Part shown: piece by piece, positions 15,140-39,952 of the stretch
How the letters are laid out: every line of letters starts with the position of its first letter
Numbering within the stretch: position 1 is the first letter of the stretch
Assembly (NCBI GenBank): GCA_041661505.1
Contig: JBAZUF010000004.1
Location: forward strand, 68,861-132,860
Origin: Patescibacteria group bacterium
Lineage (GTDB): Bacteria; Patescibacteriota; Patescibacteriia; Patescibacteriales; JBAZCA01
Direction: 5' to 3'
DNA length: 64,000 nucleotides
Made by a program: the position numbers and the translations under genes
Notes under the pieces: model-generated
Told to the model about the DNA's origin: nothing
Databases searched by the model: none
What the model saw: only the letters and a program-made list of their open reading frames with translations

Positions 15140-15988
15140 ATGTATAATATAATTCCTTTGGTATTAATCATGATCAGCTTGAGCATAATGCTAAGCATCG
15201 TAGTCCGGAAATTCTCGGCGCTCGCCAATTTGGACATCGAGAGCATGCCGGCGGAAAAGGAAAGCCGTTTTAAAGAGCGGATTATTTCCAACCGCCTGAA
15301 AAGGAATTTAACGAAATGGGGCGCGAGCCTTATGAAGGTTTTACGCTTTATCGCCCAGAATTTAGGCAAGGGTTTTTCTTACGTTTTGAGCCGGCTGGAT
15401 AAAATGAAAGACAAATATCAGGAAGAAAGCATCTTAAACAAAAAGAAGCAGGGCGACCCGGGGAAGCTGGCCGAACAGCTATTCCTTGATGCCGACGCCC
15501 TAATTAAAGACGGGTCGCTCGAGGAGGCCGAAAAGAAATTTATTGAAATCATCAGCCTCCAAAGCCGCAGCCTAAAGGCCTTTAAAAAATTAGCCGACTT
15601 GTATATTCTGAAAAAACAATTTGACGAAGCCAAACAGACTCTCGAGCATATTCTAAAATTGATTGAAGATGAGGAAGTGGTTTTGATGAAGAGTAAGGAT
15701 GAAGGTTCGGAAGACCAGTTAAAAACCCTAAACCTCGAACGGGGACAGATCCACTTTGATTTGGCGTCGGTTTTTCGGGGAAAAGAAAATTTGGAACAAG
15801 CGGGCAAAAGCATGAAAGAAGCGTTAAAAATCGAGCCGTCCAATCCGAAATACCTTGACACCATGATAGAAATTAGTATAATGGGAAAAGATAAAATTGC
15901 CGCGCTGGACGCTTTTAAAGCGCTGGAAAAAGCCAACCCGGAGAACCAGAAATTGGCCGAATTAAAAGAACAAATTAGCGAGTTATAG
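15140..15988 (+). CDS. Membrane-anchored TPR repeat protein
   Basis: N-terminal TM segment (IIPLVLIMISLSIMLSIVV) followed by TPR-like helical repeats (EEAEKKFIEIISLQSRSLKAFKKLADLYILKKQFDEAKQTLEHIL...). Confidence 0.7.
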   Translation: MYNIIPLVLIMISLSIMLSIVVRKFSALANLDIESMPAEKESRFKERIISNRLKRNLTKWGASLMKVLRFIAQNLGKGFSYVLSRLDKMKDKYQEESILNKKKQGDPGKLAEQLFLDADALIKDGSLEEAEKKFIEIISLQSRSLKAFKKLADLYILKKQFDEAKQTLEHILKLIEDEEVVLMKSKDEGSEDQLKTLNLERGQIHFDLASVFRGKENLEQAGKSMKEALKIEPSNPKYLDTMIEISIMGKDKIAALDAFKALEKANPENQKLAELKEQISEL

Positions 15989-16067: not shown

Positions 16068-16136
16068 GCCGGCGTAGCTTCCGCCGCAGGCGGACAGGCA
16101 GCTGGTACCCCATTTCCGCAGAGCATGGTTATGAGT
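16068..16136 (+). pseudogene. tRNA-Thr-derived 5' fragment with hairpin insertions
   Basis: Composition is gccggcgtagct, a 19-nt insert, cagctggta, a 16-nt replacement, then catggttatgagt. The segments align with positions 1-12, 13-21 and 31-43 of the adjacent tRNA-Thr. There is no 3' half. Confidence 0.6.
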
Positions 16137-16148
16137 AAAAAATAATAT

Positions 16149-16221
16149 GCCGACGTAGCTCAGCTGGTAGAGCAACTCCATGGTAAGGAGTAGGTCCGCG
16201 GTTCGAATCCGCGCGTCGGCT
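16149..16221 (+). tRNA. tRNA-Thr (anticodon GGT)
   Basis: Hand-folded cloverleaf of 73 nt: acceptor gccgacg/cgtcggc, D stem gctc/gagc, anticodon stem actcc/ggagt with loop atGGTaa, and T arm cgcgg-ttcgaat-ccgcg. No CCA is encoded. Confidence 0.9.
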
Positions 16222-16238
16222 CAAAAAACACTAAATAT

Positions 16239-16312
16239 CAGCTGGTACCCCGCAGATGCGGGGCATGGTAAGGAGTAGGTCTGCCCCGCAAAATGCGGGG
16301 CGCGTCGGCTCA
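16239..16312 (+). pseudogene. tRNA-Thr-derived 3' fragment with stems replaced by GC-rich hairpins
   Basis: Composition is cagctggta, ccccgcagatgcgggg, catggtaaggagtaggtc (exact match to the tRNA), tgccccgcaaaatgcgggg (in place of the T arm), then cgcgtcggctca (exact 3' acceptor). Confidence 0.6.
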
Positions 16313-16317
16313 AGCAA

Positions 16318-16348
16318 AAACATCCTAAAACTAGGATGTTTTTATTTT
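16318..16348 (+). terminator. Intrinsic terminator closing the tRNA-Thr transcription unit
   Basis: aaacatccta-aaac-taggatgttt hairpin followed by ttattttg. Confidence 0.65.
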
Positions 16349-16361
16349 GCCGTGCCCGGAA

Positions 16362-16390
16362 TTGACAGCTTGGTCGTTTTTTGTTATATT
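16362..16390 (+). promoter_or_regulatory. Putative promoter TTGACA-17 nt-TATATT for the small membrane protein/lipoprotein/DUF2207 genes
   Basis: TTGACA at 16362-16367 and TATATT at 16385-16390. Confidence 0.45.
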
Positions 16391-16502
16391 TATTCGTTAT
16401 TCCTGCACATTTAAATAGGGTTAAAAATGAAACCAAATTTTATTATTGGTACTAGAATAGGGTATGAATTGGACAATTCAATTCAAGTTAAGGAGGAGAA
16501 AA

Positions 16503-16736
16503 ATGTTTTCTGTCTTTGTTCAGGTAATGCGCTGGGGGATCAAACCCCGGGGCGAAAATGAAAACCGGGGACGGTTTTACCTTCGAGCCGTCTTGGTTCA
16601 GTCGGCAAAGACGGCCGTAGTGGGCCTGGCAATCTCTTGGCTGGCCGCAGAATATGTTTCATTTACTGTTGCCGTAGCAATTTTTATTTGCTTCGTAGCG
16701 ATCGGCGTTATATTAGGGCTGGCCGTTTGCGGCTGA
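16503..16736 (+). CDS. Small membrane protein, unknown function
   Basis: ATG 16503 is preceded by AAGGAGGAG. The 77-aa product has two hydrophobic segments. The track start at 16464 lacks an RBS. Confidence 0.5.
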   Translation: MFSVFVQVMRWGIKPRGENENRGRFYLRAVLVQSAKTAVVGLAISWLAAEYVSFTVAVAIFICFVAIGVILGLAVCG

Positions 16737-16806
16737 TTAGTTAATGTTTTTTAACCAATTAAGAACACCTCGTTTTTCAACGGAAAGGAGTGTAGTGGTG
16801 AATAAA

Positions 16807-17139
16807 ATGTTGAGAGTGCTGGTTACGGCTGTTTTTATCGCCGGAGCTTCCATGCTTTCCGGCTGTGCCGGATTGGACCAGAGCCCGGACGGGAGGCAAT
16901 TCCAGCAAACCCCCGGAAAGCCAGCTGTTTCGCCGGCCGAACCAACCAAAAAAGCTCCGGTAACAATGGCCAGCCGCGGAGCCCAATCCAGGGCTTCTGG
17001 CACGGCGGCCTTTAACCCATTTACCTCTTTCCCGCGGCAGGCGGACTTCTGCTCCGATGGGAGAGAGTTATTCGGCTATGGCCGGGAAAAAAAACCGGCC
17101 AATTCTGACGTGGTCACTCCGCTTCCATACGAGAGGTGA
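16807..17139 (+). CDS. Putative lipoprotein, unknown function
   Basis: MLRVLVTAVFIAGASMLSGC carries a lipobox (LSGC) after a signal-like segment. AAGGAG lies upstream of ATG 16807. The mature part is Pro/Ala/Ser-rich. Confidence 0.6.
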   Translation: MLRVLVTAVFIAGASMLSGCAGLDQSPDGRQFQQTPGKPAVSPAEPTKKAPVTMASRGAQSRASGTAAFNPFTSFPRQADFCSDGRELFGYGREKKPANSDVVTPLPYER

Positions 17140-17268
17140 CCGCGTTAAGTTCGACCCGGAGGCTTGCGGCTGAAATCGCAAGTCCCCCGGGTTTCTTTAT
17201 TATTTGGCCAGGCTTAACACCCGGCTATTTTTTTTGTATAATGGAAGCGCTAACAATAAGGGAAATTT

Positions 17269-19062
17269 ATGTTAAATAAAAATGGGTCATTAAGTATTGT
17301 CTGCGCGGCGATTTTTGCCGCCTTTTTATTTTTTCCGTTAATATCAGCCTTTGCCCAGCCTCCAACGAGTGCCGCAATAATATCAAATGATCTACCGGCA
17401 GAAAGCGCTATACGCCAAAATGTTTCTGACTGGTATATAAAAAATTTCGATTCGAAAATAATCGTTAACAAGGATTCAACTTTGGACATAACCGAAGATA
17501 TTACGGCTGATTGCGGTACAGTAAGCGGAAAACACGGAATTTTCCGGATTCTGCCCGAGCGGATTAAGTTTAGTAACGGAGGCGCTATCAATACGCCGGT
17601 GGAACTCATAAGCATAACCGATTTTTCCGGCCGGAGTTTAAAATACTCGGAATCAAGAAACTTTTTCGACCGCACCGTCACCTGGAAAATCGGCGACCCG
17701 AAAAGGGAAGTCCAGAGCGTTAATAACTACCGGATCCATTATTTAGTAAAAAATGTTATCCGTTTTAATAAAGATTTCGACGAACTGTACTGGAATTTAA
17801 ACGGCAATTTTTGGGATTTGGAAACCGATCATTTCCACGCCAATATTATCTTTCCGGGCGAAGTGAATGAAAATAACAGCACCGTCGACTATTATACCGG
17901 GGCGCTCGGAAGCAAGTCCAAAGATTCAGCCGAGTATAAATGGAGCGTGGCGAGCACTTTAGAGTTTAATAGCACAAAAACTCTTTATAACCGGGAGGGT
18001 ATTACCGCTTCAATAATTTTCCCGAAAAATATTTTTACGACTTACCAGGCCGGATTTTTAGAGAGCTATGGCCAATATGCCTGGCTCATTATTCCGTTAA
18101 TTGTCTTTATCGTCTGCTTCCGCTTATGGTGGAAATACGGTAAAGACCCAAAAATGGACAAATCCATTATCCCCGAATACGAGGCGCCGGGAAAGCTCGC
18201 GCCGATGGAACTCGGGATGCTTATGACCAACGGCCGGTTTAGTAATAAATTAATTACGGCGGAAATAATTAATTTGGCCACGAAAAAATTAATCACCATA
18301 AAAGAGATTGATAATAAGATTTTGGTTTTCCATTCCAAGGATTTCGAATTGACGAAAAATTCTTCCCCCGATGCTGAAAGAATATTGACGCCGGCTGAAA
18401 AGGCGATTCTTGAAAGGATTTTTTTGGATGGAGATACGGTGAAGCTATCCGACTTAAAGAATGATTTTTACACCGCGATAAAATGGATTAAAGACAAGGC
18501 GCTTGGGCTTTTGGAAGAAAAGAAATTGTTAGTCGCTTCCAGCCGGCGCTACAGTATCGGCATGATAGTTATTGGCGCAATTCTTATTCCCGCCGCTTTT
18601 GTTTTTGCCGGCTGGTCGATATTTTTAAGCGCGAGCCTTATCGTCTCCGGAACAATCATTTTGATTTTCGGAGCAATAATGCCTAAAAGGACTTTAGCCG
18701 GAGCGGAATTAAACTGGGAAATAAAAGGTTTTAGAATGTTCATGGAAACGGTAGACAAGCACCGGGCCGAGTTTTACGAAAAAGAAAATATATTTGAAAA
18801 GTTTTTACCCTACGCCATAGTCTTTGGCATTACCGGGCTGTGGATTAAAAAAATGAAAGATATTTACGGCGAGGATTTTTATCGGACTTACGCGCCGGTT
18901 TGGTTTATCGGCAATATGGGCTCGTTTGACGCGGACAGTTTGAACGGCGCGATTTCCGGGCTATCGTCTTCAATCGCCTCAAACACTTCTTCGCCTTCTG
19001 GTTCCGGAGAAGCGGGAGGGGCTGGCGGTGGCGGAGGAGGCGGCGGTGGCGGAGGATGGTAA
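17269..19062 (+). CDS. DUF2207 domain-containing membrane protein
   Basis: Signal peptide, an N-terminal ...YIKNFDSKIIVNKDSTLDITEDITADCGTVSGKHGIFRILP... pattern, central TM helices, and a C-terminal poly-Gly tail (GGAGGGGGGGGGGGW). All are typical of the family as I remember it. Confidence 0.8.
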   Translation: MLNKNGSLSIVCAAIFAAFLFFPLISAFAQPPTSAAIISNDLPAESAIRQNVSDWYIKNFDSKIIVNKDSTLDITEDITADCGTVSGKHGIFRILPERIKFSNGGAINTPVELISITDFSGRSLKYSESRNFFDRTVTWKIGDPKREVQSVNNYRIHYLVKNVIRFNKDFDELYWNLNGNFWDLETDHFHANIIFPGEVNENNSTVDYYTGALGSKSKDSAEYKWSVASTLEFNSTKTLYNREGITASIIFPKNIFTTYQAGFLESYGQYAWLIIPLIVFIVCFRLWWKYGKDPKMDKSIIPEYEAPGKLAPMELGMLMTNGRFSNKLITAEIINLATKKLITIKEIDNKILVFHSKDFELTKNSSPDAERILTPAEKAILERIFLDGDTVKLSDLKNDFYTAIKWIKDKALGLLEEKKLLVASSRRYSIGMIVIGAILIPAAFVFAGWSIFLSASLIVSGTIILIFGAIMPKRTLAGAELNWEIKGFRMFMETVDKHRAEFYEKENIFEKFLPYAIVFGITGLWIKKMKDIYGEDFYRTYAPVWFIGNMGSFDADSLNGAISGLSSSIASNTSSPSGSGEAGGAGGGGGGGGGGGW

Positions 19063-19121
19063 AACTGGATGCGGATATTTGGATAAGAGGCAGTTCTATC
19101 TTTTTTAAACGCAAAAATAAA

Positions 19122-19144
19122 AGGCGCTCAAATAGCGTCTTTTT
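19122..19144 (+). terminator. Intrinsic terminator after the DUF2207 gene
   Basis: aggcgct-caaat-agcgtct (one G-T pair) followed by TTTT. Confidence 0.5.
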
Positions 19145-19159
19145 AGTTAAAAAATGGTG

Positions 19160-19203
19160 GGCGGGCTCCTTCCTCAAGGGAGACCCGCCGTTTTGTTGTT
19201 TTG
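19160..19203. terminator. Bidirectional GC-rich terminator between convergent units
   Basis: ggcgggctcc-ttcctcaag-ggagacccgcc (10 bp with one bulge). It is followed by gttttgttgtttt on the + strand and by attttttaac on the minus strand. Confidence 0.6.
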
Positions 19204-19275
19204 GTTCTGGGAGTAGGGCTAGTCCCTTCTCCAATCAGACCAATCGCTACCGCGACCGCGGAAAAAGAGCGGACG

Positions 19276-19419
19276 TCATCCGCCGTCGATGAGGACACGG
19301 AACTCGCCCCCTCCGACTTTTCGCCCACCGAGAACGCGATGGCGTTTGAGCATGGCCAGCGTGTCTTTTCCCAGTCCCAGCTCTTCGAGCCGGGACATGC
19401 CGTAATCGTAAGCGGTCAT
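19276..19419 (-). CDS. 47-aa ORF, possible excisionase/MerR-type HTH protein (absent from the ORF track, below its length cutoff)
   Basis: AGGAGG lies 6 nt upstream of ATG 19419, starting 4 nt after the aminotransferase stop. The peptide is MTAYDYGMSRLEELGLGKDTLAMLKRHRVLGGRKVGGGEFRVLIDGG. LGLGKDTLAMLKRH...GG.EFRV resembles the helix-turn-helix plus wing pattern of HTH_17-type proteins. Confidence 0.4.
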   Translation of the reverse strand: MTAYDYGMSRLEELGLGKDTLAMLKRHRVLGGRKVGGGEFRVLIDGG

Positions 19420-19435
19420 TTATTGCCTCCTGCGA

Positions 19436-20614
19436 CTAGCTGGCTTTTGCAAGCGCGGGATCTCTGACGAAAACGCGCGATTCTTGGCTGGCTTCTGATA
19501 TCGTTTTAATCGCCAGCTTATTGCCTTCAACTGTGTTGCTCCCGACCGGGAGTCGGGTTAGAAAAATGTTTCTGGCTTGGTAATACGCCCGGCGGTCAGG
19601 GGTGACGCAGTTACTGGCGTCAACGATTTTTACTGGGTGTTTTGCCACTTCGCGGATGAATTTTTCCGGGCTGGTAATACCCGGAATCTGAAGCAGGTTG
19701 AAGAAACCAGCATCCATCTTCCTGTGGCCGGGCATAAATTTGTCGAGCGCTTGATTATGCGCCTTCCTTCTGGCCGGATATATTTTGTGAAGGCAAGGAA
19801 TGAGAGTATTGTCCAGGATTCCGTTTTCCATAATCTCCAGTATTTGTGCCTGGACCAGGAAGTTGGTACAGAGGAAGGTGTTGGCGTTTAAGTGGGTGAA
19901 CAGGTCCAAATATTTTTGGTCGGCCAGGATTATACCGCCCGACCTCAACGCGGGAGTCCCGCCCGCCTTTGAATCTGAAACGATAAAGGACGTGCCCGGG
20001 CAGGCGTCAAATGGGAAGGCTTTGTAGCGCGGTAATTCGTCTTCATCAGCCGGAACCTCAAGGTAGGCGATATCAAGGGCGTGGAAAAATTTGCCTACGG
20101 CGCGTTCGGAAACCTTGATGATATTCTCGAATGGCGTCAGGATTCCGGTCGGATTTCCAATGAGCCCCTGGTACAGCGCGGCAACCTGGTTGTGCTTCAG
20201 GCAGTAATCCAGGTGGTCTAAATCCATGCCTTCGTCGGTAAGCCTTACGCCGATGACGGTAAGATCATGAATCTTCGCCGCTTGGAGAAAGCGATCGTAG
20301 GTGAATTCTTCAGCCAGGATTACTCCTTTCCTTGGCATTTTTTTAACAGCCAGAAGAATGGATTCGATAGCCCCCATCCCTCCGTGCGTCACGACCCATC
20401 GCCTCCAGTCTTCGATGCCGTAACGATCGGCCTTTGCCAGTCGCAAAGCGAACATGCCGTTATTGTCGCTCCAGTCGGCGGTAGGATATTGTCCGACCTT
20501 CGGTCCGTGCTTCTCCACCATTTCCCTCGGTGATGGCAGATCCAGGAGGGTTCTTTCTACGACAACGTCGTTTGGTTTTCCCCTCGTACCATCAAACAAG
20601 AAATCCGTGCTCAT
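19436..20614 (-). CDS. PLP-dependent aminotransferase, class I/II fold
   Basis: IGNPTG motif and Lys motif SDSKAGGTPALRSGG (S-x-S-K...R-x-G). ATG 20614 is preceded by AAGGAG, while the track start at 20665 has no RBS. Confidence 0.8.
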   Translation of the reverse strand: MSTDFLFDGTRGKPNDVVVERTLLDLPSPREMVEKHGPKVGQYPTADWSDNNGMFALRLAKADRYGIEDWRRWVVTHGGMGAIESILLAVKKMPRKGVILAEEFTYDRFLQAAKIHDLTVIGVRLTDEGMDLDHLDYCLKHNQVAALYQGLIGNPTGILTPFENIIKVSERAVGKFFHALDIAYLEVPADEDELPRYKAFPFDACPGTSFIVSDSKAGGTPALRSGGIILADQKYLDLFTHLNANTFLCTNFLVQAQILEIMENGILDNTLIPCLHKIYPARRKAHNQALDKFMPGHRKMDAGFFNLLQIPGITSPEKFIREVAKHPVKIVDASNCVTPDRRAYYQARNIFLTRLPVGSNTVEGNKLAIKTISEASQESRVFVRDPALAKAS

Positions 20615-20974
20615 GAAATACTCCTTTGTCAGTCTTGGGGTTAATTCCAGAGTTATGTATTTCACGCATGTTTAAATGCGGTTAAAAAAGTTTTGTAAAG
20701 GGCAATCTCCTTTCTATATTTAAAATCAAGGTTCAAAAAATTTCGAACCTTAACATAGATTATGCTTTTAAATTAAGGTAAAGTCAAGCCTCTAAAGACT
20801 GGCTTTAAGAGACGCAATTTAATATATGAGTTAAATCGTGATCAAGCTGATAGCTAATAATATGGTCAGAGCTATATTGTTCAGCTTTAGAATTTTTGGT
20901 ATAATTAAAAAAATACCATAATTTATTATATTTCTCGTCCCGCCATTAGACGGCTGGGGCTTGCAAAAAAAAGT

Positions 20975-22552
20975 ATGAAGCATCTCAAAAAGATGGTTTG
21001 CGTATTTTCGCTGGCGGCATTAGTACTCGGAGCTATGCCGGCTGGGGCATTTTATTTGGAAATGCCAAAAGCTCTCAAAGAAATTGGCGCTAAGCAGAAA
21101 GTTTTAGGCACTAAATTAACGCAAGAAAGCGGGGAAACTCCGGCTCCATCGGTCGAGCCAGTAGAACCGGCTCCTCCGGCTGATGGAGGAAATACCGGCA
21201 ATCCGCCAGCACCGCTCCAGCCAGTAGAACCTGCCAACCCTCCATCCCAGCCTGGCGCGACTTGCCGAATTGACGGCGTGGAACAGCCGGGAGCTTGCGA
21301 AAACAATAACCAGGGAGGGCAAAGCGGACAAAACAACAACCAATCCAATCCTCAAGACGAGGCGCGGCGCAAAACTCAAGACGCGCAACAGCTGAAAGAT
21401 ATCAAGCGCAATGTTAAAAGGATGGAAGTGGATCTGAAAAGATTTAAGTCCATGTACGGGAAAGCCAAAGGCATGGAGATGACGGCGGAGATCAAGGCCA
21501 ACTTAGATAAAGCCGACGCTATAATTAAGGAATTAAATAATGCCCAAACCGTGGATGAAATTCAAAACATAGATATGGGCGCTCTGGGCGATATTATTAA
21601 TGAGCTGGAAGGAAGCCGGCAGGACATCGAAGAAAACGTCAACCGCGTGCAGGACGTAAAGCGGGGAATAAAGGGCATGATGAACGGCATTAAAATGTAT
21701 GAAAGCCTGATAAAAAAACTGGTCAAGCAAAAAATTACCATACCGGAAGAAATTACCGCTAACCTGAAAAAAGCCAAAGAAATTTACGCCGCGGTCAATA
21801 AGGCCAAAAACTGGGATGAGATGGAAGCGGCCGGAGTTGAGGACTTGCAGGACATAATGGTTTCTTTGGAAGAAAACCGCGACAGTCTGGAGAAATTGGC
21901 GCGCTGGAATGAAACTGTTAAACAATCTGATAAGGAATTGAAAAGCATCGCCAGCGAACTAAAAAAAGCCAAGTCGTCTTTAGCCAGTCTGGCGAAAAAA
22001 GGCTTTGACATGAAAGCTGAATACGCGGAAGCCGAAGAGGCCTATAATAAGTTGAAGGCGGCCAGCGCCGAGGCCAAAAAGAAAATCGCGGCCGGCGAAG
22101 CGGACGACGCTTTTGACCTTATGGAAAACGACGTGTTCGGGCAGATGGAAGAGGTCTGGGGAAAAGTAAAAATAATATCCATGATGTCCAACCTCGGGCG
22201 GTTTGCTTCGGATTTCAAAAAACGGATCGCGGCCGGACAAAAAACAATCCGGGACTTAAAAAGGAAAAAGCTCGCGACCAAAGAGGCGGAAGTGAAATTG
22301 AATGAAATAAATATAAAGGGCAATGAAATTGTCGCCATGATAAAAACCAAGAAAATCGACGATGATATTTTAAGCGCCAAGTTCGACGAACTGGATTCTT
22401 TAGGCCAGGAATTTGAAGAAATTGTGAGCGAGTTAACCGGCGAGACGGAAGAAATGCCTTGGGATGCCGGAAAGGACCAGTTAAAATCCATGGACGTTGA
22501 CTGGAGCGTACTGCCGAAGAAGCAACCGATTATCGACGATACGAACGGTTAA
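20975..22552 (+). CDS. Secreted helical-repeat (coiled-coil-like) protein, unknown function
   Basis: Signal peptide MKHLKKMVCVFSLAALVLGAMPAGA, a Pro-rich spacer (PAPSVEPVEPAPPADGGNTGNPPAPLQPVEPANPPSQP), then four helical modules of about 80 aa. Confidence 0.75.
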   Translation: MKHLKKMVCVFSLAALVLGAMPAGAFYLEMPKALKEIGAKQKVLGTKLTQESGETPAPSVEPVEPAPPADGGNTGNPPAPLQPVEPANPPSQPGATCRIDGVEQPGACENNNQGGQSGQNNNQSNPQDEARRKTQDAQQLKDIKRNVKRMEVDLKRFKSMYGKAKGMEMTAEIKANLDKADAIIKELNNAQTVDEIQNIDMGALGDIINELEGSRQDIEENVNRVQDVKRGIKGMMNGIKMYESLIKKLVKQKITIPEEITANLKKAKEIYAAVNKAKNWDEMEAAGVEDLQDIMVSLEENRDSLEKLARWNETVKQSDKELKSIASELKKAKSSLASLAKKGFDMKAEYAEAEEAYNKLKAASAEAKKKIAAGEADDAFDLMENDVFGQMEEVWGKVKIISMMSNLGRFASDFKKRIAAGQKTIRDLKRKKLATKEAEVKLNEINIKGNEIVAMIKTKKIDDDILSAKFDELDSLGQEFEEIVSELTGETEEMPWDAGKDQLKSMDVDWSVLPKKQPIIDDTNG

Positions 22553-22726
22553 AATGCGGCGGACCAGCGTAAGCACTCTTATAAATCTAGAACGGATTTA
22601 CTCGCCGGGCGTAAAACCCCCGGTGAGTTTTTTACTTGAAAAAAAACGGGAATTGTGATATTAATAAATAATCAAAATAATGGCTGCCTCTAGAATGAAG
22701 GGCAGTCATTTAAGACAGTAAAAATC

Positions 22727-30199: not shown

Positions 30200-30241
30200 T
30201 ATCCGCCGGACGGCGGAAAAATAAAATAGGAAATTGCCAAT

Positions 30242-32322: not shown

Positions 32323-32394
32323 GCCTTCGTCGTTCAATGGATAGGACGCAAGTTTCCGGAACTTGTGATGCAGGTTCGATTCCTGCCGAGGGCA
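32323..32394 (+). tRNA. tRNA-Arg (anticodon CCG)
   Basis: Acceptor gccttcg/cgagggc (one G-U pair), D stem gttc/ggac, anticodon stem caagt/acttg with loop ttCCGga, and T arm gcagg-ttcgatt-cctgc. 72 nt. It lies between the two permease genes. Confidence 0.9.
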
Positions 32395-32429
32395 CAAAAA
32401 TTCACGGCTCTTTAGAGCCGGAAATTTTT

Positions 32430-32500
32430 GTTCTTCGGCGGTTGCGAGGACCTGCCGTTTTGCAGGGGGCTTCCGCCCCTTCGATTCCTGCCGAGGGCAC
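32430..32500 (+). pseudogene. tRNA-Arg-derived tRNA-like fragment (no anticodon arm, 13-nt hairpin inserted in the T stem)
   Basis: The 21-nt sequence ttcgattcctgccgagggcac occurs exactly twice (32375-32395 and 32480-32500). Here it is preceded by gcagg plus the insert gggcttccgcccc, a degenerate D-arm (..ggac) and a degenerate acceptor 5' strand (ttcttcg). Confidence 0.55.
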
Positions 32501-32504
32501 CAAT

Positions 32505-39901: not shown

Positions 39902-39952
39902 ACAAAATTTCAAACTCCCCCGCAAATGCGGGGTCAAACAGTGAAATTTTGT
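39902..39952. repeat. Composite nested hairpin containing the CCCCGCA...TGCGGGG palindrome
   Basis: Outer 11-bp stem acaaaatttca (39902-39912) pairs with tgaaattttgt (39942-39952). The inner stem is ccccgc-aaat-gcgggg (39918-39933). The element sits between convergent rplL and the 753-aa gene. Confidence 0.55.

Follow-up and report, generated by a model that had tools for sequence, protein, structure and literature searches.

The stretch of DNA analysed here (the window) comprises 64,000 nucleotides (nt) of a Patescibacteria group bacterium (GenBank assembly GCA_041661505.1, contig JBAZUF010000004.1, positions 68,861 to 132,860) and contains an intact tRNA-Thr(GGU) gene between two partial, hairpin-bearing copies of itself, which are compared below with tRNA-linked GIY-YIG nuclease cassettes of other Patescibacteria. 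The intact gene (16149-16221; ARAGORN; Rfam RF00005, 68.9 bits) does not encode CCA and lies on the + strand, as do its two copies and the terminator that follows them. The upstream pseudo-copy (U, 16068-16136), delimited by sequence comparison with the intact tRNA, begins with tRNA positions 1-12 with one mismatch (16068-79), followed by an inserted hairpin, HpA (TCCGCCgcaGGCGGA), plus CAGG (16080-98), the D-loop CAGCTGGTA (16099-107), 16 nt of a decayed second hairpin, HpB (CCCCATTTCCGCAGAG, 16108-23), and CATGGTTATGAGT, which corresponds to tRNA positions 31-43 with two mismatches (16124-36). U is separated from the tRNA by an AT-rich spacer of 12 nt (aaaaaataatat, 16137-16148) similar to the native ...aaataat context 5' of the tRNA in empty sites, that is, in loci with neither copy. 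The downstream pseudo-copy (D, 16239-16312) starts after a 17-nt gap and consists of the D-loop CAGCTGGTA (16239-47), an HpB (CCCCGCAGATGCGGGG, 16248-63) that replaces tRNA positions 22-30, an exact copy of tRNA positions 31-48 (CATGGTAAGGAGTAGGTC, 16264-81), a third hairpin, HpC (GCCCCGCAAAATGCGGGGC, 16283-301), that replaces the T arm, and an exact 3' acceptor strand (16302-12). An intrinsic terminator with a 12-bp stem and a T-run (16316-48), recognized as an inverted repeat, closes the U-tRNA-D unit (U-T-D). An earlier note on this DNA had described U, the tRNA and D in the same composition, followed by a single terminator, and every element was found where it had placed it.

The 16-nt segment of U matches the common HpB variant CCCCGCATCTGCGGGG at 10 of 16 positions, all four stem differences are transitions, and the AAGGAG of U now reads TATGAG. 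Judged by this comparison, the HpB of U is a decayed copy of the hairpin, and U is decaying while D is intact. The D-loop word CAGCTGGTA occurs three times in the 64 kb, always at the tRNA-Thr locus (0.13 expected), the 18-mer CATGGTAAGGAGTAGGTC twice (0.00 expected) and a CCCCGC...GCGGGG hairpin three times (0.07 expected). These counts are far enough above expectation to rule out chance as the origin of U and D. The tRNA covariance model of Rfam matched neither U nor D at E ≤ 10, and only the tRNA itself was matched at the locus by Rfam at the gathering threshold and at E ≤ 10. The fold predicted for the whole U-T-D transcript (z-score -5.3) pairs the 5' strand of U with the 3' strand of D and leaves the tRNA cloverleaf intact. 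The pairing of these two acceptor strands, which the earlier note had pointed out, is thus recovered in the fold, where it is largely forced by the repeated tRNA strands.

The segment that replaces tRNA positions 22-30 is a conserved hairpin in other genomes. Two search patterns that left this segment unconstrained, CAGCTGGTA-N12-30-CATGGTAAGGAGTAGGTC for 185,579 reference genomes and TGGTA-N12-30-CATGGTAAGGAGTAGGT for the JGI metagenomes, gave two reference-genome loci and 20 metagenome loci; the viral contigs contained no match to the module pattern. The gap in every module found is a CCCCGC-(3-5 nt)-GCGGGG hairpin, and the order is that of the window: the D-loop, the hairpin in place of tRNA positions 22-30, then positions 31-48. 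With the loci reached through proteins, the collection amounts to 34 distinct module sequences with 13 different loops from ~17 lineages; most loci are short metagenome contigs, and the lineage counts are approximate. The boundaries of HpB are identical in every lineage. Alignment of 32 intact modules showed HpB stems that are invariant apart from one G.U change, with no compensatory changes and no covariation; the only unpaired cells are those of row 33, the U of the window, which was added for comparison. The argument of the earlier note that random decay of tandem copies would not produce such replacements is therefore reinforced, as the replaced segment is the same conserved hairpin in ~17 lineages. 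An intact tRNA-Thr(GGU) lies within ~300 nt at every locus with enough flanking sequence, mostly in a Thr-Tyr-(Thr)-Trp cluster. The spacing between tRNA-Thr(GGU) and tRNA-Tyr is 0-130 nt in most related lineages, >400 nt in L006 and more in L024 (loci are designated by L numbers). In the window the two genes are 6.5 kb apart (16350-22726), with small membrane open reading frames (ORFs), a DUF2207 gene, an aminotransferase gene and an ORF of 525 amino acids between them, and no tRNA-Trp follows tRNA-Tyr.

The other two hairpins recur as well. HpA, inserted after position 12, is present in L005, L006, L009, L010 and L013, with the variants TCCGCC..GGCGGA, CCCCGC..GCGGGG and CCACCGCC..GGCGGGG. 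HpC, the T-arm replacement, was found as CCCGCAAAATGCGGG and variants of it in L010, L014/L021, L026 and L029. The U of the window has the same layout as the U copies in L005, L009, L013 and L010, and D copies with HpB and HpC of the window type are present in L010, L014/L021 and L026.

In ~11 lineages the module is accompanied by a GIY-YIG ORF. An ORF of 85-102 amino acids follows a U-type copy and precedes the intact tRNA in L001, L004, L009, L011/L022, L014, L015/L019, L016, L023, L024 and L026, and the GIY-YIG ORF of L006 sits between the tRNA and a D-type copy. The encoded protein is the GIY-YIG catalytic domain alone (Pfam PF01541, E 1e-10 to 1e-16). Its nearest solved sequences are the UPF0213 proteins 1zg2 (E 1.6e-5) and 1ywl (2e-3) and, weakly, SLX1 (7wme, 0.06). 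A search of 5.8 billion proteins gave 87 clusters of homologues, ~43 of them close (66-82% identity), and those of the close clusters that carry a name are Patescibacteria. In 28 homologues the tyrosines of the GIY and YIG motifs, R26, H30/N31 and E62 are invariant or nearly so, and the nuclease gene is maintained and apparently functional.

The gene is laid out on signals derived from the tRNA. The AAGGAG of the copy, which is the 3' strand of the anticodon stem, stands 1-6 nt 5' of the ATG in L004, L009, L014, L015, L024 and L026. The ORF itself supplies no stop codon; it terminates on a TAG inside the intact tRNA, at positions 44-46 in the class of 98 amino acids (tail ...AVVAQLVEQLHGKE) and at positions 8-10 in the class of 86. 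From this layout we infer joint transcription of the ORF and the tRNA from a promoter upstream of U. Cleavage by RNase P at the 5' end of the tRNA would deprive the nuclease mRNA of its stop codon. The database gene calls P0001, P0005, P0017, P0019 and P0022 are annotation artefacts of the cassette layout: P0001, P0005 and P0017 begin inside the hairpin or translate U (MRGMVRRR..., MVRSF...), and others run through the hairpin-bearing copy (...AQLVPRICGAW). Locus L001 (JAUXYI010000028) is labelled as a Thermodesulfovibrionia metagenome-assembled genome and has the order TIM-TPR-[U-GIY-YIG-tRNA-Thr-D]-tRNA-Tyr-tRNA-Thr-GIY-YIG-tRNA-Trp; it is probably a mis-binned Patescibacteria contig, because this gene order is syntenic with Patescibacteria loci. 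On these comparisons, the complete cassette is made up of a tRNA promoter, a hairpin-bearing partial copy of tRNA-Thr, often with extra hairpins, the GIY-YIG gene, the intact tRNA and usually a further hairpin-bearing copy.

No GIY-YIG ORF was detected in the 64-kb window by tblastn, which matched only the tRNA-encoded tail. There is no ORF remnant between U and the tRNA of the window, and none is detectable in the other ORF-less loci, L002, L010 and L012. Comparison of positions with L005, L009, L010, L014 and L026 shows that the flanks of the window locus are homologous to those of the ORF-bearing cassettes. The window and the ORF-less L010 share the HpA stem, HpB and HpC including its loop, although their tRNAs differ, and the ORF-less U-T-D form is also found in L002 and L012. 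The presence of this form with common hairpins beside a differing tRNA in L010 makes U-T-D a recurrent state rather than a local accident.

Syntenic relatives were identified through the TPR gene of the window (15140-15988), in the order HisRS-S21-RelA-TPR-tRNA-Thr. L027 and L028 (TPR identities of 76% and 74%) have an identical tRNA and neither U nor D. The tRNA of L030 (67%) also lacks both copies, and L029 (66%) has one D-type copy in which hairpins replace both the anticodon arm and the T arm. The occurrence of the fragments in related genomes, on which the earlier note had placed weight, is thus uneven: the module is present in two reference genomes and 20 metagenome contigs but absent from the closest relatives L027, L028 and L030. 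The upstream flank of U aligns with the upstream flank of the tRNA in the empty sites L027 and L028, and the terminator after D is orthologous to the terminator after the tRNA in L030 or after the D copy in L029. Thus, U and D are placed at the two edges of the resident tRNA position, with the tRNA and short flanks between them. Insertion into a resident tRNA and tandem amplification would both predict this orthology of the flanks. The gene content downstream of tRNA-Thr differs in each of L027-L030. The accessory region that had been proposed to begin at the tRNA is therefore supported only loosely, as variation downstream of the tRNA extends over the whole clade.

Contigs L003, L005, L015, L017, L018 and L019 have identical flanking proteins but differ at the tRNA-Thr locus. 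The variants of this population have 1-3 U units and include U-U-U-tRNA without an ORF and (U-U'-ORF)x2-U-tRNA. The tandem unit of 427 nt is nearly identical between repeats (422/427), and the ORF-less spacer retains the last 13 nt of the ORF. In L014/L021, at least four tandem D units of 71 nt are joined via GCTCA microhomology between the 3' end of the tRNA and the D arm. The acceptor strands of U and D in L024 are complementary to each other (GCCGAGA/TCTCGGC), whereas those of the enclosed tRNA are GCCGTCT/AGACGGC, and both copies share a 1-nt deletion in the D-loop and an identical hairpin. Similarly, the acceptor strand of the first U in L005 is GCCGTTG, against GCCGACG in the tRNA of that genome. 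The acceptor strands of L024 and L005 are signs that the cassette has moved horizontally. A second GIY-YIG copy, located between two U copies in L011 (680-930) and L022, is broken by a stop codon and a frameshift; as its sequence reads, it is a cassette degenerating in place.

The order of a 5' tRNA copy with an inserted GC-rich hairpin, a GIY-YIG ORF and an intact tRNA is also found at tRNA-Tyr (L016), at tRNA-Trp (L001 and the Magasanikbacteria locus L031) and at tRNA-Pro(GGG) (L033), and the pseudo-copy of each tRNA species has its own hairpins. ORF-less hairpin-bearing copies flank tRNA-Thr(UGU) in L001 and L016, tRNA-Tyr in L005/L018 and tRNA-Arg(CCG) in the window. The 3' pseudo-copy after tRNA-Tyr (L005 2574-2660, oriented; L018 380-470) has GTCCTGTCatccgaGACAGGAC and GCCACGTCggatGACGTGGC inserted in the T loop between GGTTC and GAATCC. 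The intact tRNA-Arg(CCG) of the window (32323-94, + strand) is followed 38 nt downstream by its pseudo-copy (32433-32502, + strand), with hairpins at 32451-66 and 32466-79 and then TTCGATTCCTGCCGAGGGCACCA; CCTGCcgttttGCAGG replaces the anticodon arm and GGGGCttccGCCCC is inserted before the T loop. This copy ends in ...GGGCACCA, with an encoded CCA that is absent from the real gene, and the ATG of an FtsX/MacB-like permease gene follows it at a distance of 2 nt. A terminator-like inverted repeat of 18 nt (32394-32431) lies between the copy and tRNA-Arg.

Hairpins of the same kind are also present away from tRNA genes. The third copy in the window (39918-39933, CCCCGCAAATGCGGGG) is identical to the HpB of L001, L004, L007 and L016 and forms the centre of an imperfect palindrome of ~100 nt between a convergent rplL-like gene and an ORF of 753 amino acids; this site is probably a bidirectional terminator. 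The tetraloop hairpins TCCGCC-N4-GGCGGA and CCCCGC-N4-GCGGGG form terminator-like cores at 30202-30217 of the window, at L007 10725 and at L012 4428, and may be a common building block for stable hairpins. At L032 (1249-2008), a related GIY-YIG ORF of 83 amino acids splits a His_Phos_1 (phosphoglycerate-mutase-like) gene into fragments of 80 and 89 amino acids. It is bracketed by the perfect 15-bp inverted repeat CCCCCACACCAATTG (0/200 shuffles), and the junction apparently lacks ~25 residues of the host protein. The tRNA-linked ORFs have no bracketing inverted repeat beyond the acceptor strands. A reading of the hairpins as the joined terminal repeats of deleted elements was rejected, as L032 alone has a significant inverted repeat and the tRNA-linked ORFs have none.

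We favour the reading that U and D derive from a tRNA-linked GIY-YIG nuclease cassette, distributed widely but patchily in Patescibacteria, of which they are either ORF-less remains or a non-autonomous form, and give this reading a probability of about 0.68. The sequence comparisons that carry it are the homology of U and D to the cassette flanks, the linkage of these flanks to the nuclease gene, and the presence/absence polymorphism, tandem amplification and in situ decay of the cassette. The nuclease would act like a selfish, free-standing endonuclease of the homing type, or like one that stimulates recombination, comparable to SegB in the tRNA cluster of phages T4 and T6. Its breaks, or the repeated tRNA sequence alone, would drive unequal recombination and gene conversion, by which copies would be created, amplified and deleted. 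The lineage of the window would have gained the cassette; after loss of the gene, U and D would remain as a leader and a trailer, co-transcribed but without a function of their own. The hairpins would most likely prevent the extra copies from folding or working as tRNA. They would also divide the sequence shared with the essential tRNA into stretches of ~9-20 nt, so that lethal gene conversion and loss of the cassette would be less frequent; this twofold role of the hairpins is the weakest step of the proposed mechanism. That the stems are invariant while the loops are free is an argument that a stable hairpin, or its sequence, is under selection.

Several observations weigh against this reading. 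The ORFs of 85-102 amino acids have no DNA-binding domain, unlike I-TevI and the Seg proteins, and with a bare catalytic domain site-specific homing is putative. The loss of the gene in the window lineage is one that we infer with no trace of an ORF, and U-T-D could have arrived without the gene. The intact tRNA of the occupied loci has the same sequence at positions 22-30 as that of the empty sites, so that a nuclease aimed there would cut its own genome. RNAfold gave no demonstration that HpB frees the AAGGAG: the unpaired probabilities with HpB and with the native 22-30 segment were 0.40/0.39, 0.43/0.32, 0.51/0.60, 0.49/0.41 and 0.54/0.44 in five pairs. The D copies are never the leader of the nuclease gene, yet their hairpins are perfect in every lineage, which a pure relic model does not account for.

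A different reading, which we regard as tentative and rather improbable, makes the hairpin-substituted copies the working ends of an undescribed class of minimal mobile element. A UPF0213/SLX1-like GIY-YIG nuclease would act on hairpin or tRNA DNA, copy itself between the tRNA promoter and the tRNA and regenerate the tRNA by duplication, and the ORF-less U-T-D loci would be non-autonomous members maintained or moved in trans.

The invariance of the stems across ~17 lineages with free loops, the intact D copies even in the ORF-less loci (the window, L002, L010 and L012) and the predicted U-T-D fold with its intact cloverleaf would also be expected if U and D were functional RNA modules of the pre-tRNA leader and trailer, acting in processing, as decoys or in regulation, with the nuclease gene as an occasional passenger. 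However, the modules are absent from the closest relatives with an identical tRNA, each side of the tRNA has anywhere from 0 to at least 4 of them, with variation even inside a single population, the stems have no compensatory changes, the hairpin of the window U is broken, Rfam gives no match, and the fold is largely forced by the repeated tRNA strands. The odds are clearly against such a function, and the processing or decoy modules proposed in the earlier note find no support, given the absence of the fragments beside an identical tRNA in the closest relatives, the lack of covariation and the decay of U.

There is an equally small chance that the hairpins are tiny mobile palindromic elements, or footprints of the insertion and excision of nuclease elements, that prefer non-essential tRNA copies, the window having received three independent insertions. 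These small hairpins (CCCCGCaaatGCGGGG, TCCGCC-N4-GGCGGA) are also found at sites remote from tRNAs, where they form terminator cores or palindromes between genes (window 39918 and 30202; L012 4428; L007 10725), hairpins are found at many positions in the pseudo-copies of five tRNA species, and the related ORF of L032 lies within its perfect inverted repeat. The identical boundaries of HpB in every lineage point instead to one origin followed by inheritance or transfer, the tRNA-linked ORFs lack an inverted repeat beyond the acceptor strands, and three CCCCGC...GCGGGG hairpins in 64 kb are few. The idea of a palindrome colonising tRNA stems is partly right in that the hairpins are conserved palindromic modules, but they are fixed parts of a larger architecture and were not inserted independently.

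A simple tandem duplication of the tRNA gene, whose outer copies then decayed neutrally, is very improbable, although these copies keep the outer flanks and the junctions have microhomology such as GCTCA. Neutral decay cannot account for one 16-nt hairpin, identically placed in ~17 lineages, whose stems are invariant but whose loops vary, and the linked nuclease gene would be left unexplained. tRNA genes are classic integration sites and the gene content downstream of tRNA-Thr varies among relatives, but attL/attR-type scars of an integrase-mediated genomic island are just as hard to credit, as a Pfam scan found no integrase in the neighbouring genes, the repeats lie 12-17 nt from the tRNA and not at the far end of an island, they take in 5' and internal parts of the tRNA and not only its 3' core, and the module pattern is absent from viral contigs. 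The suggestion of att-site scars nevertheless came closest in spirit, in that scars of a mobile element at the tRNA are also what the favoured reading proposes; the element would be a GIY-YIG cassette without an integrase, and none of the repeats is an att duplication of the tRNA 3' end. Also weighed from the anatomy, and dropped, were CRISPR-like, type III antitoxin-like, split-tRNA and antisense-guide readings: there are no cas or toxin genes, the module is patchy, and the pieces do not make up a split or permuted tRNA, positions 22-30 being missing from both and an intact tRNA lying between them.

The size and domain content of the cassette ORF are those of stand-alone proteins of the UPF0213/YhbQ type, for which we know of no tRNA linkage or mobility. 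SLX1 requires a partner and cleaves branched DNA. The closest parallel to the cassette is SegB of phages T4 and T6, a free-standing GIY-YIG homing endonuclease encoded in a tRNA gene cluster (PMC2330249, PMC13096335). SegB cuts inside tRNA genes and drives amplification of the tRNA-plus-segB unit by homologous recombination, and the resulting arrays collapse without selection (PMC13096335). Like segB, the cassette gene is embedded among tRNA genes, the unit of tRNA and nuclease gene undergoes tandem segmental amplification, the arrays are unstable, and relatives differ in its presence. In contrast to SegB, the cassette is located in a Patescibacteria chromosome and not in a phage, with no match in viral contigs, and its protein is a bare catalytic domain of 85-102 amino acids without a DNA-binding part of the SegB type and with a putative cleavage activity. 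The cassette gene is also hemmed in by a hairpin-substituted partial copy on one side and the intact tRNA on the other; tRNA-derived sequence occupies its ribosome-binding-site position in six lineages, and a TAG of the tRNA is its stop codon in all.

Group I introns, some with homing endonuclease genes, are present in tRNA genes of Patescibacteria (PMC13011429). They share with the cassette the phylum and the exploitation of tRNA genes by selfish elements, and often lie at the anticodon region (PMC13011429); unlike them, the cassette has no intron or splicing, and the tRNA is kept whole via duplication. The terms GIY-YIG and 'hairpin' are absent from that paper (PMC13011429). The tRNA duplications of integrative elements are likewise partial copies beside an intact tRNA left as a by-product of a mobile element. 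However, the present copies come without an integrase, comprise 5' and internal segments in which hairpins are substituted, and are no more than tens of bases away from the tRNA. The hairpins resemble repetitive extragenic palindromes (REP) and bacterial interspersed mosaic elements as short GC-rich palindromes that recur in the intergenic DNA of an AT-richer genome. They differ in being much shorter (15-19 nt), low in copy number and fixed in position within tRNA-derived sequence, and no REP-associated tyrosine transposase was seen; set against REP and miniature inverted-repeat transposable elements, CCCCGC...GCGGGG is present in three copies in 64 kb, with similar hairpins at terminators in other loci. 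A search of 8 million full texts (GIY-YIG with candidate phyla radiation/Patescibacteria and tRNA; UPF0213/YhbQ/COG2827) surfaced the SegB and the Patescibacteria tRNA-intron work and no description of GIY-YIG genes in tRNA leaders with hairpin-substituted copies. Thus, free-standing GIY-YIG cassettes at tRNA genes are, as a kind, already known, whereas the layout with hairpin-substituted copies appears undescribed in the literature searched.

Despite the tiny size of their genomes, Patescibacteria tolerate selfish elements within essential RNA genes; the introns of their rRNA and tRNA genes are examples already described. The locus described here points to another solution, in which a minimal nuclease gene is lodged in the leader of an essential single-copy tRNA. 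The gene would draw on the tRNA for its promoter and its stop codon and, in several lineages, also for its ribosome-binding site, while the tRNA stays intact via partial duplication. The hairpin module offers a simple marker by which such relics can be annotated. Should the nuclease prove active, no smaller tRNA-targeting system of the homing type would have been described, and it would also be a natural source of rearrangements at tRNA loci and of gene-calling artefacts, and a bacterial counterpart to the SegB-driven amplification of tRNA genes in phages.

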